A stretch of 64,000 nt of DNA from a virus (taxonomy: Duplodnaviria; Caudoviricetes). Shown in pieces: positions 4,918-41,637 of the stretch. The position numbers and the translations under genes are program-made. The notes under the pieces were generated by a model. It saw nothing but the letters and a program-made list of their open reading frames with translations. It did no database searches and was not told the origin of the DNA. The stretch is taken from the IMG/VR virus record IMGVR_UViG_3300037067_013742, positions 32,001 to 96,000 of that record; one strand, given 5' to 3'. Position 1 is the stretch's first letter. Each line of letters begins with the position of its first letter.

Positions 4918-5011
4918 TGTATCCCCCTTCAGAGAATGTCTTTGCTTATAGAAGAAAAGCTAGGTCTGTTACAGGTTTACTTCGTTCTACTAGTCCTTTT
5001 GGGGTGAGCAA

Positions 5012-5428: not shown

Positions 5429-5477
5429 CTTTACTCTCCTCCTATATCTTCTAATAAGAATTCTTTTGGTCGGGGAG

Positions 5478-6116: not shown

Positions 6117-6213
6117 CTACTTCTCTCCTGTCTCTGCTATGTTTTTATTTGTGGGGTAGTTACTGCAACAAGCCATAGGCTTTATTTAATGTTCTTATAG
6201 ATAATAAGAAAAA

Positions 6214-12341: not shown

Positions 12342-12620
12342 TTAGCATCCGTAGATGGAGTGATACATTTCAATGAAGGGGTTAGGTGGGCAGCCTTCCT
12401 GATCCAGCAGGGTCTCCAACCTTTCCGACAGTTCGGTATGCCTGCTTACGTTCTTGGGCGTGGGGTTACATTCCTCCAGCTCGTACATTTCTCCATATGC
12501 CAAGACGGTATCTTGGTTGAATGCCCTCAGTAGGGCTTCTGGATTCTCTGGATAGAGTTCCTTAGCCAATGGGACAAGATCCATCTGATTTGCGGCGAGA
12601 TCTTTTTCTTCTGGGGTCAT
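12342..12620 (-). CDS. hypothetical protein
   Basis: GAGG RBS before MTPEEKD. Confidence 0.55.
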   Translation of the reverse strand: MTPEEKDLAANQMDLVPLAKELYPENPEALLRAFNQDTVLAYGEMYELEECNPTPKNVSRHTELSERLETLLDQEGCPPNPFIEMYHSIYGC

Positions 12621-12667
12621 CTTATTTTCCTCAGAGGTTTCCGCAGTTTTCCACTTTTGGAAGGTGG

Positions 12668-12856
12668 TCATTGCTCTAGCCCTTCCGCATATCCTCTCGC
12701 GAAAACTCCGAGAGAGACTTCTGTCTCTTCGTATGTGTCGTAGTCCCATTCTTCGGCTATTGCATTGCTTACTCCAGAGCTAACCGAGTCGAGAATCTCT
12801 TCGATTCGGTCCTGTGTTTTTTCGTCGAGTTTGACCGCGATATATAGGACTCTCAT
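12668..12856 (-). CDS. small acidic protein
   Basis: GGAG RBS. Confidence 0.55.
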   Translation of the reverse strand: MRVLYIAVKLDEKTQDRIEEILDSVSSGVSNAIAEEWDYDTYEETEVSLGVFARGYAEGLEQ

Positions 12857-12896
12857 CTGTATCTCCAGAGTTGTTTAGGTTAGTTATCTTCGAGGA

Positions 12897-13350
12897 GAGA
12901 AAGGGTGACTTCCATCTGTGCTAATGACCCAGATTTACTCGCTATAAGCGCCGTAACAGGTCTCCAACTACACTCCTATAGCGAGTTTCTCCTAGGATTC
13001 AAGCCTTACCTAGGATGGCTGGGCTGCTTAGTAGGAATCGAACCTACCTCTACGTCATCTCACCAGAATACGATAAGCAGCTTTGAGCAGAGTGTGGTAT
13101 CAGGTTCCAGGAGTTCTATTGCAATAAAGGTTACTCCCGGATTACCGAGTCCATGCCCTTGGACTCACCTGTTTGTCTTCTGCATGGGTGAATCACCAGT
13201 CTTCGGCGGGCTATCACCATTACCAGCATCAGACTAGCTATACCACTAGCTAACTACCCCATGGCGCCTTAGCGAGGTAGATTCATTTGGTGAGGGCTAC
13301 TCCTAGACTAAGTCTAGCTGCACCCAGATTAGGTGTTGCTTCGCCCTCAA
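12897..13350 (-). ncRNA. structured non-coding RNA cluster with tRNA-like elements
   Basis: Gap of about 500 nt in the minus-strand gene tiling, filled with nested stems, a potential pseudoknot and two CCA-ended units. Confidence 0.65.
13020..13081 (-). ncRNA. anticodon-less tRNA-like RNA
   Basis: GCTGCTTA/TAAGCAGC + CCA, D-like loop with GG, GTAGG-TTCGATT-CCTAC T arm, no anticodon arm. Confidence 0.7.
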
Positions 13351-13366
13351 AGACTTTCGAAAGAAC

Positions 13367-13693
13367 TCACGTCCACTGAAGAGGCACCGGCTTACCCTTC
13401 TTTCCGTAGCGATCGGTCGTCTGCTGCGATCCCCCCGAGAAGGGCTGATAGCCACCTGTCCTGACCTCCACGTCCACTCCCGCTGCGTTCTTCACCTTGG
13501 TGGTGGTGACGGGCTTGTAGACCGGATCGAGGGCCACTGGGCGCTTCCCCAGTTCACGAGTGATGGCCTGGTGGAGCTGAGGGCAGAGCTTCTTGTCTGT
13601 CCTGTCCAGAACGGCCTGGAGCTCGTCGTTGTTCAGGGTGGCGATGTGGGCGACACGTCCGGTCGGAAGGGTCACGGTCTTGTTGCTCTTCAT
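13367..13693 (-). CDS. hypothetical protein (GC-rich codons)
   Basis: AGGAG RBS, codon bias. Confidence 0.7.
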   Translation of the reverse strand: MKSNKTVTLPTGRVAHIATLNNDELQAVLDRTDKKLCPQLHQAITRELGKRPVALDPVYKPVTTTKVKNAAGVDVEVRTGGYQPFSGGSQQTTDRYGKKGKPVPLQWT

Positions 13694-13706
13694 GTTGTTC
13701 TCCTGT

Positions 13707-14018
13707 CTAGTTGAGGTCAGAACTCTCGTTCTCCATGTCTCGGGCCATTCGGATGACTTCTTCGAGCTGAGCGGCGAAAGAAATCAGAACTAGCCCTGCC
13801 GCTGCCAGGAGGGCTCTCTGATCTACCGAGAAGAGCTTCTGCTCGACGGCCATGTCGGTCTCGACCAGGTGCGTGATGCTTCTGGCGGTCTGCTTTACCT
13901 CGGCCAGGAGAAGGGCTACCGGCTCCGTTACGACCTTTGCGTCTTCTTCTCTACTCATCGTCTTCCTCCCATCGACACGGACACTGTGCGTTGTCGCACC
14001 GTTGCTTTGGACACTCAC
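13707..14018 (-). CDS. hypothetical protein
   Basis: Tiled ORF; start uncertain. Confidence 0.55.
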   Translation of the reverse strand: MSVQSNGATTHSVRVDGRKTMSREEDAKVVTEPVALLLAEVKQTARSITHLVETDMAVEQKLFSVDQRALLAAAGLVLISFAAQLEEVIRMARDMENESSDLN

Positions 14019-14101
14019 ACTGATCGAGCTCTTCTCCGCAGTTCGTACAGTACCGAGGGGGAAGCTCGTCGCATCCTACTTCTTCCCAGAGAGATTCGTC
14101 C

Positions 14102-14299
14102 CTAGGCATTCTCACCTCCTACCATTACGATAGGAGTCATCGTGACGTCGCTCTGGGGCATTGTGTGGCCGCGAAAGAGACGGAGGTTCTGAACTGGCCT
14201 GTAGAGCTCCACATGAGCATCGAACCGGCGATTGACGATCATCGCATTGCCGCGGGCGAACTCACCGATTCTCTTCTGGAACATCTCGCTGATGGTCAT
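14102..14299 (-). CDS. hypothetical protein
   Basis: AGGAGG RBS. Confidence 0.6.
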   Translation of the reverse strand: MTISEMFQKRIGEFARGNAMIVNRRFDAHVELYRPVQNLRLFRGHTMPQSDVTMTPIVMVGGENA

Positions 14300-14343
14300 G
14301 TTAGAACCTCCTGAGTTATACGGTCACTTGTTCTCGAAGAAAC

Positions 14344-14685
14344 TTATTCTGCCGGAACCTCCGAGTCGTTCAGGGAATGATAAAGACGATCCCTCAGCAA
14401 ATCTCTCAGAGTGATCTTTCCGTTGGAGCAGTCGTAGCACCGACCTCTGCTGTAGGGGCCGACGTACTCTCCCGTTCCGTGGCACTTGGGGCAGACCTCC
14501 ACGGCGATGCTCTTGGGGTCTTCGATGACCACCGAGAAGTTCTCGTCCGCCCTGACGCAGACGTACTTTCCCAGGAGCTCCGTGGGCGGCTCACCCACCA
14601 GGCGATTCTGCTTCAGGAACTCGCCGACTCTCATCTGCCACCTTGCCAGGTTGAACTTGGTCACGAGCGTTCTCTCTACCTTCAT
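14344..14685 (-). CDS. protein with DnaJ-type zinc finger
   Basis: GGAGG RBS; CPKCHGTG...CYDCSNG. Confidence 0.7.
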   Translation of the reverse strand: MKVERTLVTKFNLARWQMRVGEFLKQNRLVGEPPTELLGKYVCVRADENFSVVIEDPKSIAVEVCPKCHGTGEYVGPYSRGRCYDCSNGKITLRDLLRDRLYHSLNDSEVPAE

Positions 14686-14778
14686 GTTTGACTACCTCCA
14701 TTGAAGTTAGAAAGAATTTATGGGTGGGTTCTTTTGAACGAAGTGGTTGGCGGGCAACACACTATTCTGCTGATAAGA

Positions 14779-14991
14779 CTACTTCCTAGGATCCCAATTA
14801 GCAGGAGCTTCGGGGATATTGGCTTTAGGATGGTCATACCAGCAATTAGTTCTTGGCTTGAGTGATACGCCGGCAGGAGAGAAATGATGTGAGGCTTCAG
14901 TTCGAGGGATGTCTGACTGGAGAGACGCGAGGAGAATTGGATTAGCTTCGGGAGTGCGATAGATTCCCGTCCACCACTTACCTGGATACAT
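14779..14991 (-). CDS. hypothetical protein
   Basis: GGAGG RBS within the upstream gene. Confidence 0.5.
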   Translation of the reverse strand: MYPGKWWTGIYRTPEANPILLASLQSDIPRTEASHHFSPAGVSLKPRTNCWYDHPKANIPEAPANWDPRK

Positions 14992-15205
14992 TCTCTACCC
15001 TCCTAAGTCTTTTTCTACACCAGTAAAGTGTTTTGGTCTTCTCGAAGCCTGACTTGGTTGTCTTTACGAGAGCCGTCTGCTCTTCGTTATTTACGGAGAT
15101 GACTGTATAACCCACAAGTTCAGTTTTGTGGACATACTCTCCGGGGAGAATTTCGATAGTCTTGAGTCTTTCGATCTCTCTTCTTGTTTCTTCGGCTCGA
15201 GACAT
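14978..15205 (-). CDS. hypothetical protein
   Basis: AGGAG RBS directly after the tRNA-like CCA. Confidence 0.6.
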   Translation of the reverse strand: MSRAEETRREIERLKTIEILPGEYVHKTELVGYTVISVNNEEQTALVKTTKSGFEKTKTLYWCRKRLRRVENVSR

Positions 15206-15214
15206 TGTTTCTCC

Positions 15215-15294
15215 TGGTGCCCGGTAAGGGACTTGAACCCTTATGTAACCAGTTACCTTTTCTACCGTTTATAGGACGGAGAGGATACCCGGGC
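15215..15294 (-). tRNA. atypical tRNA-like RNA, TAT (Ile) anticodon, no canonical D arm
   Basis: GCCCGG/CCGGGC + ACCA, TAAGGG-TTCAAGT-CCCTTA T arm, CCGT-CCTATAA-ACGG arm, GTAACTGGTTAC segment between anticodon and T arms. Confidence 0.65.
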
Positions 15295-15420
15295 GTTTAT
15301 TCTTACGGTCCGAGAGAACATCATTTAGGTTTAGCCGCTTTTGAGACCCTGGCGGCGCATCATTACCTCCATGTGGTTATCTCTTTATTTCTTATACACT
15401 ATATCTAAAAGAAATTCATT

Positions 15421-16005
15421 TTAGAAGGGGCATGTGTCTTCCCGCCAGTTTGAGAAGTTGTGGCAGGAGTTGCAGGCTTCCTCGTTTGAGCCGGGATCAC
15501 AGTTGCTGCAAGATCGGATGGGAGACTCTTCCTCTCTGGGCAGAGCGGCTTCCAGAATGAGCGCTAGGGCCTGAGTAACCCGACCCTCATGGATGTGAAG
15601 GATGAGACTCTTCGCCAGCTCTCGATCGATCAGAGGGGCCTTTACGGGGGACTGATAACGTGCGTTGTCCCTCAGCTCCGCGTTCTCCCTTTCGAAGTTG
15701 CCCAGGTCTCTGGTGAGACGAGATTTAGTCTCTTCCAGGTCTTTGATATACCTCTCTCGAGCGGTTGCCTCTACGTTGGCCTCGTTCAGATTTTGCTGGA
15801 GGCTGTCGACCTTGGTTTCGAGCTCTGCCCTGTCGGGGCCGTACATCTCTGCTCGGATCTTCTCCAGGGCCTTGGTGTAGGCTGGGATATCTCCATCCCT
15901 CAAGGCGAAGACGAGGTCGTTCCCATCCTTCAGTCCGCAGTTGGTCAGTTCGCGGATCATCTTGATGGTAGAGATGGGCTGAAGGATTTTGATCTCACTG
16001 GTCAT
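15421..16005 (-). CDS. ribosomal L7/L12 CTD-like domain + coiled coil + zinc ribbon
   Basis: IKMIRELTNCGLKDGNDLV; C-terminal CSNC...CNSC; paralog of 20230..20817. Confidence 0.7.
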   Translation of the reverse strand: MTSEIKILQPISTIKMIRELTNCGLKDGNDLVFALRDGDIPAYTKALEKIRAEMYGPDRAELETKVDSLQQNLNEANVEATARERYIKDLEETKSRLTRDLGNFERENAELRDNARYQSPVKAPLIDRELAKSLILHIHEGRVTQALALILEAALPREEESPIRSCSNCDPGSNEEACNSCHNFSNWREDTCPF

Positions 16006-16041
16006 TGGAATCTCCTACTTGGTGAGGTCGATCCCCCTCAG

Positions 16042-16188
16042 TCAGTTGTCCGTGATGTCCTCGCCCTCCTCCACTGAGGGGTTGTTGACTTCGATGTTGT
16101 AGTCATACTCGGTGGTGTCGTACCACTCCTCCTCGTCGAACTCCCTCTCGTGGATGGTCTCGAAGATCTCGTCCTGCTCATCCGTCAT
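16042..16188 (-). CDS. very acidic 48-aa protein (not in ORF track)
   Basis: MTDEQDEIFETIHEREFDEEEWYDTTEYDYNIEVNNPSVEEGEDITDN; AAGGTAGG leader; GC-rich codons. Confidence 0.65.
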   Translation of the reverse strand: MTDEQDEIFETIHEREFDEEEWYDTTEYDYNIEVNNPSVEEGEDITDN

Positions 16189-16220
16189 GTGAACCTACCT
16201 TTCTCTTGATTTAGGAGAAA

Positions 16221-16430
16221 CTACTCGTTATCGAGTTCTACGGTTTCTTCTTCTTGGCACTTGCGGAGGGAGATGCTTCTTGCCGCGCCACAAGACCAAC
16301 GACACTTCTTCAGTCGTCCTTTTGTGGGACAAGATTCATCAACCCAGTTGCATATCTCTATGAAGGGACATCCTACTCCCGCGGGGATATTTCCATCTAT
16401 TAGGGAATTAGAATTCAAATGATCTTTCAT
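16221..16430 (-). CDS. small Cys-rich protein
   Basis: AGGTAGG leader; six Cys. Confidence 0.5.
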   Translation of the reverse strand: MKDHLNSNSLIDGNIPAGVGCPFIEICNWVDESCPTKGRLKKCRWSCGAARSISLRKCQEEETVELDNE

Positions 16431-16956
16431 CTACCTACCTCTTACCAGAGTGATAGTAACAGAAGGATTTCTCTGGGAGGTTTGCATCGAGCAATCGACT
16501 ATCCCCAGGAGATAGAGGACCGCGAAGATGGCTATGATGATGCCGAGAGTTTCAGTGACGCTTCTCATTTGGTGGCCTCTTTGAGTTCTACGGTCTTTCG
16601 GGCGAGACACTCATTACAGCAATAACCAGAGTGCGTTACTTCTCCTCCCATCGGCCAACAGAAAGACTTCCAACATATCTGACAAGTAAACCAAAGAGCT
16701 TTCAAGGTTTTGTTATTGTTAGACATTACACAGGAAGTAGTAAGAACTTATTCTCTTCAGTGAAGACTTGAGGCTTTTATAGAGAAAGGCTGATTGTTAT
16801 AAAGATAGATCGAAGAACCAGTCTTTATGATTATCTTATCGCGCGCCTTTTGGTAGCGCGCTCGAAGGCCAAGCGAAGCGTTAGGCTGAAGAGCAAGCTC
16901 CAAAGGCAAGCGATAGAAGCAGTCTTTCAGTCATTCTCTACAATAAATCCTTTCTA

Positions 16957-16986
16957 TATATAGGGAGTTTCAAAACATCGTGTCAA
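16957..16986 (-). promoter_or_regulatory. sigma70-type promoter
   Basis: Minus strand TTGACA-18 nt-TATATA in an intergenic gap. Confidence 0.55.
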
Positions 16987-17081
16987 GTAGATTAGGGTGA
17001 GAAACGGATTGTCGCTGTTTGCGCTTGTATCGCCGTTATGTCTTCCGGCTTTTTATTGCGTCATAGGTAAAAGTCTATCAG

Positions 17082-17441
17082 CTAGATAGATCCTTGCTGT
17101 CTGGCCTTCTGTTTCCAGGCCATATAGCGGTCGGTAGGATTCGTTGGCTCCTCTTCTACTTGTTGAGATGGGAGCTTTGGCTTGGCGATGGTGGTCCTTT
17201 CTGCAAGAAGCTTTCTTACTTCTAGAGAGAGGCGTTTTTGTACATCTGGCGGGAGAACGATTCTAACTCTACTGTCTGTCTCATGGGGAATTGCTAGGAA
17301 AACCCCATACTTCCCCCTCACTATCTTGAGCCCGCGAATCACAATGTCTCCACTGCGGATAGCCACCTGTCCTAGAGACTTCTCTCCATAAGAAAACCAC
17401 TCGATCTCGATGATTTTGGTAGAATTGGTTACTTCGTTCAT
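17082..17441 (-). CDS. SpoVG-like nucleic-acid-binding protein
   Basis: IVIRGLKIVRGKYGVFLAIP matches the SpoVG core; start reset to the Met 6 nt after TGcTATACT. Confidence 0.7.
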   Translation of the reverse strand: MNEVTNSTKIIEIEWFSYGEKSLGQVAIRSGDIVIRGLKIVRGKYGVFLAIPHETDSRVRIVLPPDVQKRLSLEVRKLLAERTTIAKPKLPSQQVEEEPTNPTDRYMAWKQKARQQGSI

Positions 17442-26999: not shown

Positions 27000-27721
27000 G
27001 ATAAGACCTCTTCTTCTACGTAGAGCAGTACTACTACGGCACCATGCCATAGCAGCACATACCCTGTCCGTTGGGCCTGCCTGCGGGTATCGCGCCCACC
27101 TACCCCTAAGGGTGATCACTATGATCAGGCAGACTGATGTAGTACAGCATACTGTATAGGCCCCTGCTGTAGGGGGCACATGTAGGACTATAGTAGTACT
27201 AGTGTACACATAGACATACACTCATGTACTACCTGATGCATGGATAGATGTACTACCCATGTAAGCCTGCTTAGTGCAGGTACAGCATGACTACATGATT
27301 TAGGGATTATGTCCTATGCATATATGTACGCAGATGTAGCATATGGCACATGTACATGTAGCTGCTGTGATGCTGGTCATTCAACTTGTGCTTGTTGTAC
27401 TACTACTAGTAGTTAAACATAAGCGCATCCAACACTATAACTAAGGTAGTTATAGGCGAGATCATAGCTCATAGTACTGTTTCATTTATGCGCGCATCCC
27501 TTTCGACATCACGCATAAAGGCTTAGTACTAGTATTGCTTAGATCCAGTAGCGCATGTTCAGGTAGCTACTAGACTCAGATAAGCCAGTTTCTTATCTGA
27601 CAAGCACTCCAGACTGTTATTCACAAGTCTGGTGGTTAACCGCAACCAGAGCTACCGGAGATCAACCCGGGGGCTCCGAACGTGGCAACCATCCTGAGGA
27701 AAATCCCCAAGATACACGTCC

Positions 27722-27839
27722 AGGTACACAGAAATATTTAAGTTTAGGTTTGGTTTTTGGATTGGGCTTTTTTAAGGTACACAGAAATATTCCATTTTAG
27801 GATCTGAATCCCTATCGACTTTAGGTACACAGAAATATT
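27722..27839. repeat. three exact 17-bp direct repeats AGGTACACAGAAATATT
   Basis: At 27722, 27775 and 27823. Confidence 0.9.
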
Positions 27840-27905
27840 TGGTTTGGGGGAAATTTTCTATTTTTGGATTGGGATTAGTATTGGGAAGATTTGTGATATA
27901 AAGCT

Positions 27906-28508
27906 TTGAGGAGGGTCTTGATGGATAGTGTTCCCGTATATGCTTTTGGTAGTAGTGAACCAGTTACTCGTATTGAGACGGGAAGAGAGTGTGCTCTAAT
28001 AGATAAGTCTTATAGTAAGTTATCTCTTATAGAGAGATTGTGGTGGGCGGTTTCTGGGCGCCGGCCGAAAATAAAAAATCCTTTTGTTCCGGCAGTGACC
28101 TATAAGTTCTATAGTGGGTGTGACTATACTTTCTACCTTATCGAACATCTTCCAAAGGTTTGTGGTGAAGATCCTTCTCCGGAGTCTTACTTAGAAGCCG
28201 TTAGGGGGAAGACTGCAATTCCATTCATTTCTGGAATTAGTTTTTCTTTTAATAAGGGGAAGGGGGTTGTTGAAGGAACCATCCTCTCAATCTTGTCTAC
28301 CGAGTCTCTTACTTATCGGCTTGTAAAGGAGGGGGATTGGGATTTCGTTGGGAAGGTAGCTGATGAATATGGTGGTCTGTCTATAATGGTACTTCCTAAT
28401 TTTAGGATTAATCAGACTTCTTGGGGCATGGGCATTGATGATCTTGTTACAGAAGAGAATTTTACTTTCTCTGCTTCAGAGCCGGGCTTCCTGAAGAAGA
28501 TTCGATAA
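27906..28508 (+). CDS. divergent tail-tube-family paralog
   Basis: YSGCD, ISGIS, ADEYG, WGMGIDDLVTE align with 56850..57539 (FSGCD, IQAIS, ANEYG, WGISIDDLVSE). Confidence 0.7.
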   Translation: MRRVLMDSVPVYAFGSSEPVTRIETGRECALIDKSYSKLSLIERLWWAVSGRRPKIKNPFVPAVTYKFYSGCDYTFYLIEHLPKVCGEDPSPESYLEAVRGKTAIPFISGISFSFNKGKGVVEGTILSILSTESLTYRLVKEGDWDFVGKVADEYGGLSIMVLPNFRINQTSWGMGIDDLVTEENFTFSASEPGFLKKIR

Positions 28509-28535
28509 TTTTTCCCGCCGAAAAAAGATTTCCTA

Positions 28536-28563
28536 TTGACAACTAGGGTAGCTGAATTAAATT
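28536..28563 (+). promoter_or_regulatory. sigma70-type promoter for Hsp20
   Basis: TTGACA-16 nt-TAAATT followed by AGGAGG. Confidence 0.5.
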
Positions 28564-28595
28564 TTTCTCCAGAAAAAAGGAGGAGGTTAAAGGAT

Positions 28596-28934
28596 ATGTT
28601 TACTCTACTAGATCAACTACTAGACTATGAAGACTTTATGAGATTAGGGATGAAGAGGGCTAACTTCTCAGCTGAAGAGAGATGGGAGTTTAATAAAGAT
28701 GGAGATACTGGGGTACTAGAGATAGATCTTCCAGGAGTTAAGAAAGAGGATGTATCTCTGGAGGTGGGTGATGGCCGGCTAGAAATAAAATGGAAGAAGA
28801 AGGGGATTAATCGTAGTCGGTCATTTAAGCTCTCTCCCGAGTATGGTGAGGAAGTTACCGCCAAGATGGAAGATGGAATTCTGGAGATCAGGATGGCCTA
28901 TAGCTCTAAGAGAAAGAAGATAGAGATCGTGTGA
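28596..28934 (+). CDS. Hsp20/alpha-crystallin small heat-shock protein
   Basis: EIDLPGVKKEDV, RSFKL, AKMEDGILEI, KKIEI; ATG start after RBS. Confidence 0.9.
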   Translation: MFTLLDQLLDYEDFMRLGMKRANFSAEERWEFNKDGDTGVLEIDLPGVKKEDVSLEVGDGRLEIKWKKKGINRSRSFKLSPEYGEEVTAKMEDGILEIRMAYSSKRKKIEIV

Positions 28935-28980
28935 TATGCTGTCCCCGTAAGAGACAGATGTTCTGTCTCGGTGAGGGACA

Positions 28981-29145
28981 ATGCCAGAAATCCTGCCCGA
29001 AGCTCTTTGTTTTGATGATATCTTTCTAGTACCTAGACATTCAGACATTTCTTCTAGAGATGAGGTTGACCTTTCGGTCTCTCTTCCGAAGGGTGTTGCC
29101 CTTGGTCTCCCTATTATCTCTGCTCCTATGACTTGGTCGTTATAA
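28981..29145 (+). pseudogene. truncated 5' end of the resident IMPDH/GMP reductase gene (not in ORF track)
   Basis: GAGGG RBS; MPEILPEALCFDDIFLVPRHSDISSRDEVDLS...LPIISAPM then TWSL*. Confidence 0.85.
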
Positions 29146-29169
29146 TTGGGAGTGTGATATGTTCTTCTT

Positions 29170-30771
29170 ATGATTTTAAGAGAATACAGAAAGAAAAGAC
29201 CTAATAATGTACGTATAGATCGCTTTGCTTATGTTCAATGTGACGAATGTGGTAAAGAGTATGAAATCTTGATTTCCAATAGGAAAGCTTCACAGAAAAA
29301 GAAGCTTGGTACTTGTCATGAAGGGTTGGACTATTGCAAGCCTTGTGCTTTTAAGAAAATAGCAGCACCAAAACTTAAGGAGATACAAAAGACTCCTTCT
29401 TGGAAGGAAAAGCAGCATTTGTCACATAAAGGCCAACGTCAGTACCAATGGCGTTTAGATTATAAAGCAGGAAAAGCCTCCACCCCAAGAGGTTATATAC
29501 AAGTTCAAGACGGAAATGGTCGGCTTAGGCCAGAACACGCAATAATAGTTGAGAAGTTGATGGGAAGACTTTTGACTAAAGAGGAACGCATTCATCATAT
29601 CAACCTTGATAAAAGTGACAACAGAGTAGAGAATCTTTGGTGTTGCGTAGACCAAAAGCAACACATGTTGCTTCATGCTCAATTATACGAGATTGCGAAG
29701 GAGCTAATACAAGCAGGAGTAGTTGTATTTAAAGATGGTGTTTATAGCTTAAACACTAGCGGAACCGGTTCTATCTCGTTTGATGATTTTCTCCTTGTAC
29801 CACAGTTTAATGTTGTGAACAGTAGATTAGATACTGATTTAACTACTCGTCTTACCAAGACGAGATTTATAGATCATCCAATTTGTTCCACTAATATGTC
29901 TACTATTACGGAGCTAGAAATGATGAAAGCAATGGACCAATCTGGAAGTGTCGGCTTTCTTCACCGATTTATGTCAATCGAGAAACAGCTAGAGATTATA
30001 TATAAGGCAAAAGAACTTGGGATTCGCTATATTGTTCCATCTCTTGGGGTGAAAGAGCATGACTTTAATAATCTTTCGCTTTTCAATAAAGCTGGGATAG
30101 AAATTATTCTAATTGACGTGGCACATGCTCATTCGACAATGGCTTGTAGACTATTGGAGTATTCTAAAGAACACTTTCCAAATATTGAGGTCATTATTGG
30201 CAATATTTGCACTTCGATTGCCTGCCATGATTTTTGTAGACTTGGTGCAGGTGCTATTAGAGTGGGGATTGGAGGTGGTTCTCAGTGTCTTACTCGCTCA
30301 AATACAGGGCATGGCGTTTCAACTCTACAGTCTATAATTGACTGCTACTCAGTTTCGCGCCATTTTAACGTTCCTCTAATTGCAGACGGTGGTTTTCGAA
30401 ATAGTGGCGATATTGTGAAAGCGTTGGGATTTGGAGCCGAGGCGGTTTCTCTTGGCTGGTTATTATCTGCCTCTTCTGATACTCCTGGTGAGGTTATTAA
30501 TATTAATGGTTCTTTGTTTAAACAGTTTTACGGAATGGCTTCTAAAGAAGCACAGGTGCAATATCTAGGAAAGAGCCGAGAAGATATTTGTCCAGAAGGA
30601 AAGAGTGAGTTGATTATATATCGTGGAGATACTAAAAAAATTCTAGGTGATTTAGTAGGTGGGATAAGAAGTGGTCTTACCTATTCAGGTGCTAGAACGT
30701 TACGGGAATTTCGTGAAAAGGTAAAGGCTCGAAAGATTACTGATCAATCGAAGAGAGAAAGTAAGCTTTAA
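29170..30771 (+). CDS. HNH endonuclease fused to a complete IMP dehydrogenase/GMP reductase domain
   Basis: EH..IVE..MGRLL...E.IHHINLDKSDNRVENL; then FDDFLLVP, IDVAHAHS, GIGGGSQCLTR, IADGG, FYGMAS, GGIRSGLTYSG; no CBS pair. Confidence 0.9.
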   Translation: MILREYRKKRPNNVRIDRFAYVQCDECGKEYEILISNRKASQKKKLGTCHEGLDYCKPCAFKKIAAPKLKEIQKTPSWKEKQHLSHKGQRQYQWRLDYKAGKASTPRGYIQVQDGNGRLRPEHAIIVEKLMGRLLTKEERIHHINLDKSDNRVENLWCCVDQKQHMLLHAQLYEIAKELIQAGVVVFKDGVYSLNTSGTGSISFDDFLLVPQFNVVNSRLDTDLTTRLTKTRFIDHPICSTNMSTITELEMMKAMDQSGSVGFLHRFMSIEKQLEIIYKAKELGIRYIVPSLGVKEHDFNNLSLFNKAGIEIILIDVAHAHSTMACRLLEYSKEHFPNIEVIIGNICTSIACHDFCRLGAGAIRVGIGGGSQCLTRSNTGHGVSTLQSIIDCYSVSRHFNVPLIADGGFRNSGDIVKALGFGAEAVSLGWLLSASSDTPGEVININGSLFKQFYGMASKEAQVQYLGKSREDICPEGKSELIIYRGDTKKILGDLVGGIRSGLTYSGARTLREFREKVKARKITDQSKRESKL

Positions 30772-30772
30772 T

Positions 30773-31084
30773 ATGATCAATATGACTAAAGAAGATAGAA
30801 TTGGTCTTAATAGAAGGAATATTATCTGTGATTCTTCTGGATTAGAAGAGCTTCTTTCTGTCCCGCCAGAAAACGAAGTCATTATCAAGTTTCTTCCCTA
30901 CTTTGACGAGTATCTCTCATTGAGAACTCGTGAGATAGACCGCCCATGGTTTTCTATAATGGACTCAATTCTTAGTTTCTTTCTTGAGACTTGGGACGGA
31001 AATCCTCAGCGTAATAAAGAAAACTTTATCCTTATAGAGAAATTAGCTATAAACTTTCTCCTGGCTGTAGGAGAGGAAATCTAA
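30773..31084 (+). CDS. hypothetical protein
   Basis: Tiled ORF. Confidence 0.6.
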   Translation: MINMTKEDRIGLNRRNIICDSSGLEELLSVPPENEVIIKFLPYFDEYLSLRTREIDRPWFSIMDSILSFFLETWDGNPQRNKENFILIEKLAINFLLAVGEEI

Positions 31085-31683
31085 TGGCTTCCGAAAAAAT
31101 TGAGCAGATCATGGGATGGATTTCTGGCTATTCTCCCGCTATAAAGGAAAACGCCTTAAGGCTTCTTTTGGCTATTGAGGCAGTAGACTCAAGGGCATTT
31201 CCAGATATTCTTAGATGTGATGGTCTTCCGGTCCAGTTTGTCTGGGAGAGTGGAGAGATGGAGCTTTCGTTTGCTATAGAGCCCCTCCTTACTGATGAGC
31301 AAATGGAGCTAGTTATCTCTAGAGTCCTTTTAGATAAAGGGCTTATTCCTCCAATGGAAGAGTCTCTTATGGAAGAATGTGAACTGGATGGTGGTTCTTA
31401 TATGCCCTTAGACTATCTAGAGGAGCTTCGGCTTACGCTAAAATCGTTTATGACACCTCCTGTCTTAGAATCTATAAATAACCTTTGTAGAATTCTTAAC
31501 GCAAAGCCTGTTTCGTCTGAAGCCTATTCTGGTTTATCGCGTAGATCAGAGCATGGCTTCCAATGTAAGTATGCTTTAGCTCATCTAGATAGGTTTAAGA
31601 GAGAGAAGTTAGATAAGACAATTGCGCTTCTAGAAGAGTGTCTTCTGAAAATGAAAGAGCTTAAGTCTGAGAGATCAGACTAG
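31084..31683 (+). CDS. hypothetical protein
   Basis: GAGG RBS, TAATG coupling. Confidence 0.65.
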   Translation: MASEKIEQIMGWISGYSPAIKENALRLLLAIEAVDSRAFPDILRCDGLPVQFVWESGEMELSFAIEPLLTDEQMELVISRVLLDKGLIPPMEESLMEECELDGGSYMPLDYLEELRLTLKSFMTPPVLESINNLCRILNAKPVSSEAYSGLSRRSEHGFQCKYALAHLDRFKREKLDKTIALLEECLLKMKELKSERSD

Positions 31684-31702
31684 ATTCCTGTACAATGCTC
31701 TT

Positions 31703-32419
31703 ATGGATGAAGATAAGTCTATTGTTCCAGCTACAACAAACCTAGCTAGTCTTGAGATAGATAAGAGTAGTCTCTGTTTGTCGGCAGATGACTATTCTAC
31801 TTTGACAATGTCTCCCGCCGCACAAAAAATACTTTCTTCTATAGTGTCAGCTTCTCATGTTGGTTTAGTTTCGGCTGCACCACTTACTTGCCAAGGCCCT
31901 GGAAATTGCCCTTTTGTTACTAGATGCCCAATCTATAGGGCTGATGGTAAAGATGGGCAGTACCCTATTGGTAAGCAGTGTGTTGCAGAAGCAGCCATAA
32001 TTCAGGAGCGGTTTGTTGCCTATGCTGATGAATTAGATAGAGATGGAAAGTTAGTCAACTCTATGACATTTAGGTCCCAGGTCTCTAAGTTAGTAGAGTT
32101 AGATCTCTACGACTATCGTCTGAGTCTCATTCTTGGTGGGGCCGGGGGAACCTCGGATGGATCTCTTCTAATTGAGCAAACAATTGGAATTGATAAGGAT
32201 TCTCAAGAGGAGATAAAGCAGGTTCAAGATCATCCCGCATGGAGGATGAAGGTAAAAGTTCAACAGCAAAGGATGGAGCTTTTGGACTCCATGGGCCTTA
32301 CCGAAAGAAGGAAGGCCGCTATAGACGCAGCCCTTCATCGTAACAGTGAAGAGAACTTCCTATCTAAGTCGATAGAACTTCTTGAAAGGATCGCCAAGAT
32401 AGAGGAAGCTATGGGGTAG
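31703..32419 (+). CDS. Cys-cluster protein, possible terminase small subunit
   Basis: C....CP....CP...C..E, HPAW, helical C-terminus; upstream of terL. Confidence 0.45.
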   Translation: MDEDKSIVPATTNLASLEIDKSSLCLSADDYSTLTMSPAAQKILSSIVSASHVGLVSAAPLTCQGPGNCPFVTRCPIYRADGKDGQYPIGKQCVAEAAIIQERFVAYADELDRDGKLVNSMTFRSQVSKLVELDLYDYRLSLILGGAGGTSDGSLLIEQTIGIDKDSQEEIKQVQDHPAWRMKVKVQQQRMELLDSMGLTERRKAAIDAALHRNSEENFLSKSIELLERIAKIEEAMG

Positions 32420-32431
32420 GACCATAGCTAA

Positions 32432-35400
32432 ATGCCTTTTAAGGGTTTCCTCTTCTACGATATCGAGACTCGTCTTCCATCAGGATACGATAAACCTTTC
32501 TCTGAAAGTGCTAAGAGGGCCCATCAATTATGGGGCTTTCAGTACAAAGTAACCGGTCTCGATCCCGTTGAATCTGTTACTGAAAAGACCAGGATGCTCC
32601 TGGCCAATCCTACTAAGTTCTTATCTCGTAATAAATCTAAAGAAGCTGAGTTCTCGCTTCTAAAGAAAGTTTCTCGTAAATTTAATCCAGACCTTGTTGG
32701 GGTTGGCTGGAATAACCAATCTTTTGATGCCCCGGTTCTAGGACATTCTTTTGGAAGAGCTAAGGCTGGCGGGGCCTTTGCCAAAACCCGACAAGTAGAC
32801 CTTATGGTCGAAGCCCAAAAGGCTTTTGAAAAGATCTATGGGTTTAAGGGTGGGCGACCCTTCTCTCTTCGTGCCTTTACTAATGACTTAATAGAGGTTG
32901 TAACAGAGGGTCTATCTGTAGAAGACAAAGCCTTCTATCTTGCTAGATGGAAGATTAGTGGCGGAAAGGGAAAGATCGCCCTTCGTTCTGGTGAGGAGCT
33001 ATCTGGAGAGAACTACTGGAAGGCTTTAGGCGAAAAGGGAAAGGGAAGTGCTCTAAGAAGTGCTCATAAATATAGTATTAGAGACGTAGACATCCTTCCG
33101 TTCATAGAAGCTCATACTCGTCTTGCTCATCATGCAATAGACGGTTCTGTTGAAGTCAATATGCGGCTTCTAAAGAAGATGAAGAGGTATGAGCAGGCAG
33201 AAGCTGCCGTTAAAGCTTTCCCAGAGTTGTTCAATGGGTCTAATAAGAATGGCCCGAGAATTCAGCTTACTAGTGAAGAGACAACCGGTAAATCCTGGCT
33301 CTCTAAGTGGATGAGAGATGAGGGGAAGAGGGGAAAGCTTGGTCTTGTTACTGGAGATGTAGCGTGGATAGCTAACGATAGAAGAGTTGCTGGAAGTCGT
33401 TCGGGTATCGTCGCCGCGCAAATCAAGTACAGGGGTGAGTACCATCGTTTCGACTTAACCTCTCAGTCTGGCAAGTTGGGAATGTACCAACTTCAACAGA
33501 AGATGGCTTTGGAGATTGGAGATACTAGAGCTCTAAAGAATTTAGAGAAGAGGATTGCCCATCTTACTTACCAGACTCCCTTCTCGGCTATTAATCCCAA
33601 GATTGCCAAAGGTCCCGCTGCGAAGATAGGTACTCGTCTAGCCCGACGCTCTATCCTCTCTCCTGAACTAAGAGAGATTTTTAGTCTTGGTGGTGCAACC
33701 AGACGAGAGATGCTTGCTCCTCGTTTAGAGGGAATGCGGGCAGTAGAGATAGTTCAGAACTATCTGAAAAAGAAAGAGATTCCTCTACTTAGGACTGGAG
33801 ACGATGTAAGAAACTTCCTGGTAAGCAGGAAGATGAATGTTAGTGAAGCTACTAAAGCGGCAGAAGAAATTACCAATACTGGAAAACTTGGCTCATCTTT
33901 CCGTAAGGAGGGAATTGAGGGCGTCTATGTAGCTTCAAGAGAAAAATTAGCCTCTATGGGTTATAAGAAGCCTGGTCTAACTGGGGCTACGATAGCCGTA
34001 CATGAGGCTCTTGAGGGACAGATTAGATCTTCTGGTGGATTAGACGAGGCTTGGAAAACTGTTTCTAGTCATACTAGCCATCGAATTTATGGCGCCGAGA
34101 TGGAATTTGCGGCCATGCTCGGCCCCGATGCGGTTAGGGAGCTTTCTCTTAGAAGAGGTCGGGAGATTGCACAACTAGCTGGAAAGCTAGGGACTCCAGA
34201 GCTAAAGTCTGCTGAGAATTACCTAAGCAATCTGCCGAAGCTCTATCATCAGATCCTAACCAATCGCGGATATTCAAAAGAAGAAGTTTCTGAGTTTATC
34301 GAGCCGTTCCTACATGCTCCGATATCTGGGAAGGCTTCTTCTGTAGCCAAGGCAGCTTCTCAACCAGCAAAGTTAGGAGAGCAGGCTGCTCATACGCTAG
34401 ATGCTTTAGGTCCTGAGTCTAGACTTTTTAAGTTAAGTAAGGGTATTCCACTTGCTATCGGTACTGCTATTGGGGCGGATGTTCTTCTCTCTAAAGATAA
34501 GACTGGGCCATTTTGGGGTGGGGTTGCGGCTATTGGAGCCTTAGTGGGCTCTGGCTTCCTCGCCAAGGGGATGAGCGGCGGGAGGAGGGCTGGTCTTGCA
34601 GGTGCTGCCTACCTAGTCACCAGGCTTATTGTAGGTGGCATTGCGGGTAGTATGGACGCTGGCCATGATCCGGCAATTGAGGGTCTTAACGAAAGTGGGT
34701 TTGCGGGAACTCGTTCTCTTGAAACTGACTTTGGTTCTGGTTGGAAGGGACTAGCCAGTCAGAGACAGCTTCGTTCTATTTTTGCGGGGGATCATCACAT
34801 TAGTCTATTTGGGCCAGCCAGAGCCAGAGTGGGTTTAGCCAGTGCCCATAATTCAATTATAGAAGGTCTTCATGATAATGGCTTTAGTGCTGGTCTAAGG
34901 CATAGAACTACAGACTTTGGATCTGGATTCTCGCGGGCGGCTAGAACAGCAGTTGAAAAGCTCGGCAAGTTCTTTGGAAGAGCGAGGAGAGCAACTACTT
35001 CCAGTACAGTAAAGGCTGTCGAAACTATTATCCCTGAAGTCCCAGAGGGTTTTGCAAGAGCTCTTGATCGTACCGAAGAGGAAGCAAGCGTTATCTGGAC
35101 CAGTCCCGCTGCGCAAAGATGGTGGAACTGGAGAACTAGTCAGTCTGCTGAAAGGATAAACGAGCCAACTGAGGCCATTTTAAATGCCCTCCCTAATAAG
35201 CAGATTCCAAAGACTTTAACTCCAAGGACCTTAGGTGCTAGTGAGTCTCAAGTTATTTCCCCAGCACAAACAACTACCAAGTCTCTAGATAAGATTAGTG
35301 GTCAGTTTGCTAAAAGTCATAATCCGGAGATCATTCCTGGTACTCCCAAGAACCCGGTTTCTGGTGCGGGCGAACCAGTAAATGATGCTAAGTCATGGCT

Positions 35401-38493: not shown

Positions 38494-41400
38494 ATGAGTA
38501 CAGATGCTTCGACTATTTTTTCTGGGCGCATAGGAATTCCAAAGAACTTACATCCAGCTTGTGAAGCCTGTATTGCTAATGCAAGAGAGAAATATACTGG
38601 CTTTATGTCGGACGAGGGTACTTATCACAAAGACGGTTTTGCGGTAAATTGTCCCTATATCCCCCACGACGAAAAGTATTTTCCTGATAAGTTTAAATCT
38701 CAAATGTCTCCAGAAGAATGGGCACTAATGAACAGCCTTAAATCTCCTCTATTATGGGGAGAGGCTAATCTAGTAGACCCAGATAATGGAAAGCCTTGGA
38801 AGGCTTGGGATTATCAGAGGGCTCCTCTTCTTTGTGCAAGTCCTAGAAAATGTTATAGATTTGGTAGGAGAACTGGTAAATGTAGGACCCGAGATTCCGA
38901 TATAACTCTTGCTGATGGGTCAATCAACAAGATGGGAGATTTAGTAGGTCATACATTTTCGGTATGGTCTATAGATCCTAATACTTTTAAATATACGAAA
39001 GTGGCTGCAACGGCTTTTGAGAACGGGGATCAACCTTGTGTTAGGGTTGGAACAAAGTATGGTCATATAATCGAATGTACTCGAAATCACCCTTTTCTAA
39101 CTTGTGATGGTTGGGTTTCTGTAGAAACTGGCTTATCTATAGGCAATAGAATTGCGACACCAATTACAAACCCAAACATTGGGAGTGAGGTGTTTGATAA
39201 AAGGTTACTTTCTCTTCTTGGATATCTTCTTGGAGACGGCAGTTTTTATGATGGATCTAGTTTGGATGTTAGATTTACGGTTTCTATAGAAAGAGAGGAT
39301 GTTCTACAGCATTTTTTGTCTCTACTAAATGGAACATATCGTATTAACAAAAAAGTTCATAATAATTGTAATTGTATAGCTCTTCATATGGATAATGATA
39401 TTGTGTCTATTATCCAAGAGCTTGGGCTTAGGGGGAAAAACTCTCACACCAAATTTATTCCCCCTTTTGTCTTCAAACTTAATTCGGAATGTATTGTAGA
39501 GTTTTTACGACCATTATTTACAACAGATGGGTGGTCGGACAATAGAGGGAATATCGGATACTGCTCAGCATCAAAAGAGTTGGCCACTGGTGTTAAACGA
39601 CTTCTTTCAAGATTGGGAATCGTTTCATCTATAAGGATTAAAACTATAAAGAGTGGAAGGTATTCTGGAAACGAGTATTATACTGTAGACATATGTAACT
39701 ATTCTGAAACAAAAAAGTTCGAGGAGATTATTGGTCTTAAGTATAAGGGCTATAAATATTCTACTTCTTCAGATAGAAATTCTTATAACTCTCAGCTACG
39801 ATCAATGCCAAAAGAGTTTTCGTTTAAGTTTGCGAAGAAGTTAAGAAGGGTTGTCAACACTGTAAAACAACGGAATTCTTTTGGTTATATTAGAGAAGAC
39901 CATGCCGTTGGAAGAGAAGTTCTCACTAAATGGGCAGAAGATCGCCCGGAATATTTTAAAGATGAGCTAACGCTTCTTAATTCTGATCTCTATTGGGATG
40001 AGATTGTTTTTATTGAGGATATAGGAATAGTCCCTACAGTTGGATTAAGCGTTCCAGGAACAGAAAATTACGTAAGTGATGTGGTAGAGCATAACAGCAC
40101 GATCCTTGCCGTAGAGATTCTTTGGTATCTTTTTACTTCTGGTGGGGGAAGGCTACGCGATCCCGATACTGGTCGTGTTCGTCAAAATCTAACGGTAATG
40201 TTATTAGCTCCACAAAAGGTTCACGTAGATAATATCTTCCAGAGAATTAGAGCCTTCTTGACTCTATCTCCAAAGCTTTCTAATAACGTAGCCGCTTCTC
40301 GTCGTGGTTCCCCTCAATATATAGGTTTAAAGACTAAGGATGGTGGAGATGGAAATGGTGTTTCTGGCTTTGCTTCTGGAGATGCTTCTGGTAGTAAGGG
40401 ACTGTCTGGTCGTGGTCAGGACGCTGACTTAATCGTTCTGGACGAAGGAGCGTTCGTATCAGAAGACGTTATGATGAACGTCATTAACCCCATTCTTTAT
40501 ACTCGGCCAACTACATCGTTTATCGTCTCTTCAACTCCTTCTGGTATTTCGGGCGACTATTTCGAAAAGGTTTGTACTCGCAGACCAGACTTTGTAGAGT
40601 TCTATGTTCCCGCCTCGATGAGACCTGACTGGGATAAGGTTAAAGATCAAGTAAGAAAGGACTTCGGTTCTTCTCAAGATGAGTGGAATAAAGAGGTTAT
40701 GGCGGAGTTCTCTCCTGCTGGTATTGGTGTTTATAGAGACGACTTAGTAAAGCTCGCCCAGTCTGACTATGCTTATGGAGATATGCATCGTCATGACGGA
40801 TATATCTATACTTTTGGTATCGATTGGAATAAAGAGCATGGAACTGAGATTGCTGTAGTTGCAACAGCACGTTCTGCTCCTCACGTTTCGTGGACTGCCT
40901 TTACAGAAAACATTCCTAAGGAAGAGTTTACTACTCCTGCTGGCATACAGAGAGTTGTAGAGCTTAATAGGATTTGGCGACCTATGTGGATCTACGCCGA
41001 TGAAGGTGGTGGAGATGGCGCGGCAATGCTTCGTCATCACGGCCGAATGAGCGTTGGCAAGAACCCAATAGACGCCGTCCTTAAGGACATTGTTAAGTCC
41101 TACGATTTTGGATCTAAGCTTGAGATTATTGAGGCTGACGGGACAATGGTTAAATATCCGGCTAAACCCTTTATGGTGGAAAACTCCGTGAAGAAGTTTG
41201 AGCTTGGTGAGTTTAAATATCCTCGTGGTGACTTGCTTCTAACTAAGCAGTTGAATAATTATGTTGTTGATCGGCGTACCCCAGCCGGGATTCCCGTATA
41301 TGCTGTCAAGGAAAAGAAGTGGGGCGATCATAAGTTGGATGCTGTTAACCTTGCTCTTATTGCAGTTAGGTTAGAACTTCCGTCCTTTACTCAAGGGTCA

Positions 41401-41637
41401 GTTGGTTCGATGGGTACTCCAGTTATTTATATCCCAACCGAGCAGGCAAAGAGTGAGCGGGCTATCCTCCCAATGTCTGTCCCAAACAGAAGACTTCCAG
41501 ATTCTTCTATACGATCAGATCCAACCTATGGTAAAAAGGTTGTGGTCCGTTATTGGGGTACGGAACCTAATGAGGCTATTGCAGAAGCTCGGGCGGGTCG
41601 GCGTAATCAACCTCGCGGCAGACGGTTTGGAAGGTAA
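38494..41637 (+). CDS. terL: terminase large subunit with intein
   Basis: Q motif WDYQ, Walker A GRRTGK|S, Walker B LIVLDEG, SSTP, nuclease GIDW and DHKLDA. Confidence 0.93.
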   Translation: MSTDASTIFSGRIGIPKNLHPACEACIANAREKYTGFMSDEGTYHKDGFAVNCPYIPHDEKYFPDKFKSQMSPEEWALMNSLKSPLLWGEANLVDPDNGKPWKAWDYQRAPLLCASPRKCYRFGRRTGKCRTRDSDITLADGSINKMGDLVGHTFSVWSIDPNTFKYTKVAATAFENGDQPCVRVGTKYGHIIECTRNHPFLTCDGWVSVETGLSIGNRIATPITNPNIGSEVFDKRLLSLLGYLLGDGSFYDGSSLDVRFTVSIEREDVLQHFLSLLNGTYRINKKVHNNCNCIALHMDNDIVSIIQELGLRGKNSHTKFIPPFVFKLNSECIVEFLRPLFTTDGWSDNRGNIGYCSASKELATGVKRLLSRLGIVSSIRIKTIKSGRYSGNEYYTVDICNYSETKKFEEIIGLKYKGYKYSTSSDRNSYNSQLRSMPKEFSFKFAKKLRRVVNTVKQRNSFGYIREDHAVGREVLTKWAEDRPEYFKDELTLLNSDLYWDEIVFIEDIGIVPTVGLSVPGTENYVSDVVEHNSTILAVEILWYLFTSGGGRLRDPDTGRVRQNLTVMLLAPQKVHVDNIFQRIRAFLTLSPKLSNNVAASRRGSPQYIGLKTKDGGDGNGVSGFASGDASGSKGLSGRGQDADLIVLDEGAFVSEDVMMNVINPILYTRPTTSFIVSSTPSGISGDYFEKVCTRRPDFVEFYVPASMRPDWDKVKDQVRKDFGSSQDEWNKEVMAEFSPAGIGVYRDDLVKLAQSDYAYGDMHRHDGYIYTFGIDWNKEHGTEIAVVATARSAPHVSWTAFTENIPKEEFTTPAGIQRVVELNRIWRPMWIYADEGGGDGAAMLRHHGRMSVGKNPIDAVLKDIVKSYDFGSKLEIIEADGTMVKYPAKPFMVENSVKKFELGEFKYPRGDLLLTKQLNNYVVDRRTPAGIPVYAVKEKKWGDHKLDAVNLALIAVRLELPSFTQGSVGSMGTPVIYIPTEQAKSERAILPMSVPNRRLPDSSIRSDPTYGKKVVVRYWGTEPNEAIAEARAGRRNQPRGRRFGR
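38881..40095 (+). mobile_element. intein with LAGLIDADG endonuclease in the TerL Walker A motif (405 aa)
   Basis: GK|CRTRDS, TRNHPF, LLGYLLGDG, FLRPLFTTDG, VVEHN|S. Confidence 0.92.

Follow-up and report, generated by a model that had tools for sequence, protein, structure and literature searches.

What has happened at a phage locus where the first codons of an IMPDH/GMPR-family gene stand just before a long open reading frame (ORF) that joins an HNH endonuclease to a second, whole enzyme of the same family? The locus lies in a window of 64,000 nucleotides, bases 32001-96000 of the 229,064-bp IMG/VR virus record IMGVR_UViG_3300037067_013742 (Duplodnaviria; Caudoviricetes), which is rated complete by CheckV; positions given without a contig name are those of this window. 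A sequence-only reading of the locus had proposed that a resident gene was truncated at its SAPM motif and replaced by an in-frame HNH-IMPDH/GMPR fusion, and an intact allele in a related phage now gives both junctions of this replacement at nucleotide resolution. The resident gene has been replaced by a cassette with exact junctions, the cassette is present or absent among co-occurring related phages, and the enzyme that it brings is foreign; in addition, the fused architecture is conserved in a second phage, beside a stump of its own. It is reasonably probable that the cassette, an I-HmuI-like HNH nuclease fused to its own IMPDH/GMPR-family enzyme, is a selfish homing-type element that invaded the resident homologue of a jumbo phage. 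Nuclease activity, target site and homing are predictions made from sequence, and so is the activity of the enzyme within the fusion.

The intact allele and the ends of the cassette

The 54-residue product of the short ORF upstream of the fusion (the stub) matches the Pfam IMPDH model over residues 8-51 (model positions 1-43 of 345, E 9.6e-8), in agreement with the earlier description of a family N-terminus with its own ribosome-binding site that runs as far as PIISAPM. After PIISAPM the stub ends in four unrelated codons (TWSL) and TAA. A search with the stub among longer proteins gave a single match, P0121, a 346-residue protein whose residues 1-50 are 100% identical to the stub and which continues through SAPMDTVTNG into a complete enzyme. 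On the contig that encodes P0121 (L010, from JGI 3300029288), the gene is flanked as in the window, by the Hsp20 gene upstream and the 103-residue ORF downstream. On the left, window 28534-29130 corresponds to L010 139-735 with 91.5% identity, and the homology breaks exactly after the ATG codon of SAPM (29130); on the right, window 30771-30999 corresponds to L010 1621-1849 with 91.3% identity, the homology resuming at 30771, 2 nt before the ATG of the downstream gene. The intervening cassette has no homology to L010 736-1620. It thus follows from the exact homology junctions that 885 bp of the resident gene have been replaced by a 1640-bp cassette (Table 1), whose GC content is 38.7% as compared to 46.1% for the displaced segment. 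A transposon-like element was considered and rejected, the ends of the cassette being without terminal direct or inverted repeats; a 10-nt repeat, GTGTGATATG, found at 28929 and again at 29152, is within chance expectation. A promoter and terminator scan gave no signal above shuffles.

Both states of the site were found more than once. The fusion allele recurs at 99.9-100% DNA identity in ENA assemblies ERZ27247363 and ERZ27247358 and in Logan SRR8542065 (contigs L001-L003, respectively), and Logan SRR18595300 encodes an identical fusion protein with the same neighbours, the stub included. Because the same arrangement recurs in these four other independent assemblies, an assembly or sequencing error that joined two separate ORFs, a possibility raised with the original proposal, is ruled out. 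The intact allele is present also on contig L065, which matches L010 at 100% identity and extends across the junction; it belongs to ENA assembly ERZ27247363, the same assembly that yielded the fusion-bearing L001. Both alleles thus coexist in one community. The outcome is a presence/absence polymorphism at one site, intact in L010 and L065 and occupied in the window and in L001-L003.

The stub differs from L010 at 4 of 150 nucleotides (2.7%), all of them synonymous, and the 111 nt next to the junction are identical. The Hsp20 gene (~8.3%) and the downstream ORF show 8-9% nucleotide divergence from L010, with no identical tract on the right side. The low divergence of the stub would fit either a recent event or co-conversion of the sequence adjoining the junction. 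The left junction falls inside PIISAPMDT, the most conserved N-terminal motif of the family, and an exact 23-mer that spans it is shared with an otherwise unalignable phage gene. The latter encodes a 349-residue SAPM-type enzyme of an unrelated phage in IMG/VR (L063 1209-2258 and L064 2670-3719), comes after a thioredoxin-like ORF, and has in common with L010 only a 36-nt stretch (89%) that includes the exact 23-mer over the PIISAPMD codons.

Between the stub and the fusion, the leader of the cassette contains a 4-codon mini-ORF (ATG TTC TTC TTA TGA), with its ATG at 29159 and its TGA at 29171-29173, overlapping the ATG of the fusion as ATGA. The GGGAG of the leader is 6 nt from the ATG of the mini-ORF and 17 nt from that of the fusion. 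Since the fusion ATG is without a well-spaced ribosome-binding site, translation of the fusion may depend on coupling to the mini-ORF. Stub and fusion are in one reading frame, and read-through that would join them is ruled out by the two different stops that intervene, TAA at 29143 and TGA at 29155. The stub was likewise found not to be a tandem duplication, its identity to the N-terminus of the fusion's own enzyme being 32% as compared to 100% to P0121.

Table 1. Features of the fusion locus (window positions; all on the plus strand)
Feature	Position	Strand	Remarks
Hsp20-family gene, left flank	28536-28934	+	Pfam HSP20 E 8.6e-7; common to the intact-allele contigs
Stub ORF	28981-29145	+	54 aa; GAGGG ribosome-binding site 5 nt before ATG
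Resident-derived portion of stub	28981-29130	+	codons 1-50 of an IMPDH/GMPR-family gene, up to the ATG of SAPM
Incoming cassette	29131-30770	+	1640 bp; leader and HNH-enzyme ORF; replaces 885 bp (codons 51-345 of the resident)
Cassette leader	29131-29169	+	TWSL codons and TAA, GGGAG at 29148-29152, mini-ORF; read from sequence
HNH-enzyme fusion ORF	29170-30771	+	533 aa; starts 24 nt after the stub ORF
HNH endonuclease half	29170-29769	+	residues 1-200; zinc ribbon and I-HmuI-like HNH core
Enzyme half	29770-30771	+	residues 201-533; complete CBS-less IMPDH/GMPR-family TIM barrel, STNMST clade
103-aa ORF, right flank	30773-31084	+	common to intact-allele contig L010

The fused nuclease and its enzyme

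Searches with hidden Markov models (HMMs) place both stub and fusion in the IMPDH family and bear out the description of the longer ORF as a zinc ribbon and HNH domain followed by a whole enzyme. In the nuclease half, HNH_3 (PF13392) matches residues 123-163 of the fusion with 29.3 bits against a curated cut-off of 24.8, PHROG 19902 "HNH endonuclease" matches residues 21-196 (E 1.1e-16), and thousands of free-standing HNH relatives of ~190-300 residues align over residues ~16-195. An alignment with 31 free-standing relatives shows H142, H143, N155 and H169 to be invariant, N151 and H165 to be nearly so, and the zinc-ribbon cysteines C24, C27, C56 and C59 to be conserved. The first 200 residues of the fusion are by these comparisons a whole free-standing-type phage endonuclease.

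An AlphaFold2 (AF2) model of the HNH half has a pLDDT of 85.9, rising to 96-98 over residues 120-190. Its best match in the PDB is I-HmuI (Z 7.0, root-mean-square deviation 2.5 A over 71 residues), which leads the next entry by more than 2 Z units, other HNH nucleases ranking below it; a Foldseek search of the same model against the PDB gave nothing significant. I-HmuI is the intron-encoded HNH nicking homing endonuclease of Bacillus phage SPO1 (PDB 1U3E), and the fusion shares with it the HNH core fold of Pfam HNH_3. Unlike I-HmuI, which has C-terminal DNA-binding modules and only 16% identity to the HNH part, the fusion has an N-terminal zinc ribbon, is not located in an intron and continues into an enzyme.

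The enzyme half is complete: residues 202-532 match positions 2-343 of the 345 in the Pfam IMPDH model (PF00478, E 6.6e-84), 58 of 61 strongly conserved columns are kept, and the catalytic cysteine loop GIGGGSQCLTR, which begins at residue 366, is retained as had been noticed at the outset. The enzyme half does not reach the NCBIfam equivalog cut-offs (251 bits for TIGR01302, cut-off 481.5; 208.6 bits for the GMP reductase model PRK05096, cut-off 397), and because all such scores fall below cut-off it is not assignable to IMPDH or to GMPR. A short flap without the Arg-Tyr dyad and the absence of a CBS domain give it what we take to be a GMPR-like look.

The fusion was correctly described as being without an intein. 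Pfam searches that do detect Intein_splicing and Hint domains in the terminase of the window and in the protein P0086 find neither in the fusion, and the location of the HNH part, which precedes the whole enzyme instead of interrupting it, is a further reason why the element is not an intein. Nor is it a group I or group II intron, since a search of 28000-31500 against Rfam found no intron at E up to 1 and since a whole second enzyme, rather than a second exon, lies downstream of the HNH part. P0086 itself (631 residues, encoded on another phage contig and belonging to the STNMST clade) has an intein inside the catalytic loop, GIGGG/C...HN/SVCATR, the slashes marking its ends. Like this intein, the cassette exploits a conserved motif of the same phage enzyme family; unlike the intein, which splices out to yield one intact host protein, the cassette undergoes no splicing, its nuclease stays attached and the resident gene is destroyed. 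At least two kinds of mobile element have thus invaded genes of this enzyme family, each at a different conserved motif.

The incoming enzyme is 35% identical to the resident enzyme that it displaced, and a quick maximum-likelihood tree places the two in different major clades (Shimodaira-Hasegawa-like approximate likelihood ratio test, SH-aLRT, support 98-99); it is by these measures a foreign, distant xenologue. The sequence-only reading had taken PICSTNMSTI for an altered form of the SAPM site and the altered motif for the immune target; comparison with the family corrects the first view and does not support the second in the form in which it was put. The PICSTNMSTITE motif is the consensus of the incoming enzyme's own clade, whereas the resident clade has PI(I/L)S(A/S)PMDT, with PI(I/L)S(A/S)PMD carried by 12 of 12 checked members of this victim clade. 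STNMSTITE is an ordinary motif of a different enzyme clade and is therefore not a tailored change, and any immunity of the cassette to its own nuclease would stem from the fact that its enzyme gene is a distant xenologue. The protein P0058 (581 residues) was also considered on account of its N-terminal extension, which was found not to be a nuclease.

A second fusion lineage

The best match of the HNH part among 1.84 billion cluster representatives is P0122 (432 residues), in which HNH_3 is again followed by a complete IMPDH/GMPR domain. The two fusions are collinear, with 49% identity over 428 residues and one gap across the junction, and the catalytic and metal-binding His and Asn residues of the HNH domain are present in both. 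P0122 is encoded on a non-syntenic 93-kb phage contig (L011), with genes for an intein-bearing RecA and a DUF7227 protein upstream and a PHP gene downstream. Directly upstream of P0122, in another frame, lies the N-terminus of yet another IMPDH-family protein (...YNYDDVALVPQFGTVSSRFNGEIDLSI...). This stump of 42 residues scores 20.4 bits against a custom clade HMM, all of ~11,000 scored shuffles giving 7.9 bits or less, and BLASTP aligns it to many family members from residue 1 onward; the general Pfam model does not report it. As in the window, a duplicate of the fusion's own N-terminus was ruled out as its source.

The L011 stump leads straight into the zinc ribbon of the HNH part, at its second half (DCKPCGYK...). 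Starting from an arrangement like that in the window, one deletion may explain this junction, having taken away the stump's end, the leader and ~54 codons at the start of the HNH gene. The L011 nuclease gene appears to be decaying from its 5' end, with its HNH core and the frame of the fusion preserved. In unrelated genomes, recurrence at this target gene amounts to one further case, with its junction altered by deletion. No empty site corresponding to L011 was found, and an IMG/VR scan with an L011 neighbour gave nothing useful. Elsewhere on L011 there are a RecA gene with an intein/LAGLIDADG insert (4912-7002) and a DNA polymerase III alpha gene, interrupted by LAGLIDADG ORFs, that appears to be split into pieces (12566-17282); this genome is heavily colonised by homing elements.

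The second lineage bears on whether the nuclease had any part in the replacement. One or two illegitimate or short-homology recombinations could have brought in a foreign gene with an N-terminal HNH domain, the nuclease being uninvolved. Such passive xenologous replacement is consistent with the mosaic nature of phage genomes, with another 742-bp indel that separates the window from L010 nearby, and with a cassette for which neither a donor nor a co-conversion gradient on the right side was found and whose cleavage activity is a prediction. It is nevertheless unlikely, because a non-syntenic phage has the HNH-enzyme unit beside a stump that derives from another resident homologue, recurrent gene-targeted insertion being what a nuclease-driven process predicts; the left junction falls in the family's most conserved N-terminal motif; and the HNH core is under constraint as strong as that on the enzyme. 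Recurrence of a stump in two contexts, a junction in a conserved motif and a complete nuclease with a core more conserved than the enzyme together favour gene-targeted, nuclease-driven invasion over chance recombination.

The strength of constraint on the nuclease could also be seen differently. The HNH cores of the two fusions share 59% identity and the enzymes 48%, the fusion has persisted through ~50% sequence divergence, L011 has lost the zinc ribbon and kept the core, and both alleles occur in one community. These features are consistent with a nuclease that no longer serves homing, or no longer serves it exclusively, and that acts for example as a weapon against co-infecting competitors with a gene of the SAPM type or as a nuclease for DNA/nucleotide salvage, physically coupled to an enzyme of purine interconversion. 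Domestication of this kind seems quite unlikely, since the N-terminal 200 residues are those of an ordinary free-standing-type phage HNH endonuclease, there is no sign of a functional link between the nuclease and the chemistry of the enzyme, and the constraint on HNH would also be expected if its folding were needed for solubility of the fusion. Moreover, a domesticated nuclease overlaps with a homing element instead of excluding it.

The available start codons bear on whether nuclease and enzyme are made as one protein. Were the enzyme released by proteolysis or separately started by non-canonical internal initiation, the fusion would be meaningless beyond a lost stop codon; an AAGGAG (29698) and a GGAG (29715) that resemble Shine-Dalgarno sequences lie inside the HNH tail, and the gene caller starts the L011 protein inside the HNH gene. 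However, there is no in-frame ATG, GTG or TTG between M166 and the start of the enzyme in the window fusion, nor one for the enzyme half in the corresponding L011 stretch, and in both lineages the frame is unbroken, the alignment across the junction having a single gap. Production of two separate proteins is thus very improbable. Lacking a separate start codon, the enzyme half would also be lost to any frameshift or stop that arose in the HNH part, and absence of an enzyme start in either lineage supports coupling of the nuclease frame to a useful function. The suggestion in the sequence-only reading that permanent fusion makes the homing endonuclease gene hard to lose remains a plausible one and is now better founded, on an enzyme without its own start and on a collinear fusion with 49% identity in L011 that has lost its 5' end and kept its core.

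Further searches indicate that such fusions are infrequent. A word-indexed search with the junction region (residues 100-215) returned the query alone, the same search having missed P0122; the junction alignment, run against IMG/VR, found 47 HNH loci, of which 0 had an IMPDH domain nearby; and a scan of JGI metagenomes for the fusion found contig L012 again and nothing else. Since no further fusion was found in the index of 5.8 billion proteins, in IMG/VR or in JGI metagenomes, the element appears to be rare.

A possible course of invasion and its genomic setting

Invasion of the resident gene by the cassette could have proceeded as follows. During co-infection, the nuclease would cut phages that are without the cassette at their resident gene, within or close to the sequence that codes for PIISAPMDT, and a cassette-bearing genome would then serve as the repair template. 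Homology on the left would be supplied by the 5' portion of the resident gene and on the right by the gene downstream. The victim gene would lose its 3' 885 bp, the HNH-enzyme ORF being put in their place. The cassette enzyme, which belongs to another clade (35% identity, STNMST), would not be a target and would restore the lost function, and the stub would remain as the left homology arm for further homing into intact alleles. A right junction at the gene boundary would be expected from a donor that shared only the downstream gene. The enzyme would be made only as the tail of the nuclease ORF, which would slow the decay and loss usual for homing endonuclease genes. The cassette may, as a tentative proposal, be regarded as a "cut-and-rescue" element, whose nuclease destroys a resident metabolic gene and carries a covalently fused, resistant xenologue of it, the nuclease ORF not being open to inactivation by frameshift or stop without loss of the enzyme.

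Several points weigh against nuclease-driven invasion, in addition to the missing donor and right-side gradient already mentioned. Cleavage or nicking and mobility are predicted properties. Free-standing homing endonucleases often cut away from the point of insertion, so that cleavage may lie elsewhere than at the SAPM junction. The 111-nt identical tract beside the junction rests on a single pairwise comparison. The L011 stump stops ~10-17 codons before the SAPM position, and the L011 junction may have arisen independently instead of by a later deletion. The nearest unfused enzyme, P0002, which has no HNH remnant upstream, groups weakly with the window fusion in the quick tree (SH-aLRT 87), so that any history of fusion and loss drawn from it would be tentative. 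Finally, only two fusion lineages were found in protein collections of 5.8 billion and 1.84 billion, in IMG/VR and in JGI metagenomes.

Among phages, the T4 Seg and Mob enzymes, the Aeh1 MobE that splits nrdA and the cyanophage F-CphI at psbA are free-standing homing endonucleases that target a neighbouring conserved gene. The cassette resembles free-standing phage nucleases in being without an intron or intein, in lying in or beside a conserved metabolic gene, in being variable among relatives and in its position at a recombination boundary; unlike the fused cassette, such nucleases are separate ORFs that spread with flanking DNA of the same allele. To our knowledge none is fused to a complete xenologous replacement of its target or leaves a stump of its victim. 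A literature search gave no report of a phage homing endonuclease fused to a full target replacement and no paper that combines a homing endonuclease with GMP reductase. In ICP1 phages, nuclease genes are found at recombination boundaries, and free-standing endonucleases mark the boundaries of genetic exchange (PMC10448857).

The closest described analogue of the cassette is to be seen in the mobile endonuclease ORFs (mORFs) of fungal mitochondria, which carry a foreign piece of their target gene, as in atp6 of Allomyces macrogynus and in atp6, atp9, cox2 and nad3 of Glomus sp. (PMC3630166). The foreign C-terminal piece functionally replaces the native one, the native remnant being unexpressed and nearly identical to the intact gene of a close relative, and the endonuclease ORF is sometimes in phase with the host gene (PMC3630166). 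As with mORFs, the endonuclease ORF of the cassette travels with a divergent copy of the target gene and leaves a native remnant. The mORFs are mitochondrial, encode GIY-YIG or LAGLIDADG enzymes, bring the C-terminus only and have the remnant downstream, whereas the cassette has an HNH enzyme, resides in a phage, carries a whole enzyme fused behind the nuclease and has an N-terminal remnant upstream.

On the usual view, a homing endonuclease gene persists only if it spreads further before decay sets in. If the proposed course of invasion is true, a nuclease with a fused replacement of the gene that it destroys would have its own frame coupled to a useful function, could thereby prolong its residence and would escape the cycle of invasion, decay and loss. 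The cassette could then also drive xenologous gene replacement between phages, and it would parallel, in nature, the engineered toxin-antidote (cleave-and-rescue) gene drives and be a viral counterpart to the mitochondrial mORF hybrids. The idea is directly testable, since sequences are in hand for both alleles, occupied and intact, and for a second, diverged lineage. For annotation, "HNH-IMPDH" multidomain proteins with adjoining small IMPDH-like ORFs would be scars of invasion by a mobile element, not novel enzymes.

The genome that carries the fusion locus is that of a jumbo phage, and genes near the locus are phage-like, among them the Hsp20 gene, a gene for a 1463-residue polyvalent protein and the large terminase gene with its LAGLIDADG intein. 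Comparison of window 27000-33000 with GenBank phages by blastn found no close relative, tblastn against phages gave unfused enzymes only, with identities up to 35%, and IMG/VR scans with the two downstream proteins gave nothing useful. The large terminase (1047 residues, window 38494-41637, plus strand; PHROG 2 terminase) has an intein with a LAGLIDADG endonuclease (Intein_splicing at residues 137-534, LAGLIDADG_3 at 332-414), a second mobile element in the same phage and one located in an essential gene.

Upstream of the locus, at window ~27100-27900, the GC content falls from ~57% to ~40% and gene orientation changes from the minus to the plus strand. A 680-bp region at this switch has no ORF of 100 residues or more and is probably a divergent promoter region between two modules. 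Window 27792-28533, which includes a 200-residue ORF of unknown function (27906-28508), is missing from the intact-allele contigs L010 and L065. The 141 nt to the left of this 742-bp indel (27651-27791) are 100% identical to L065, in lineages that are elsewhere ~9% apart, and the indel is a second site at which presence or absence of a segment distinguishes the lineages and to the left of which the sequence is identical.

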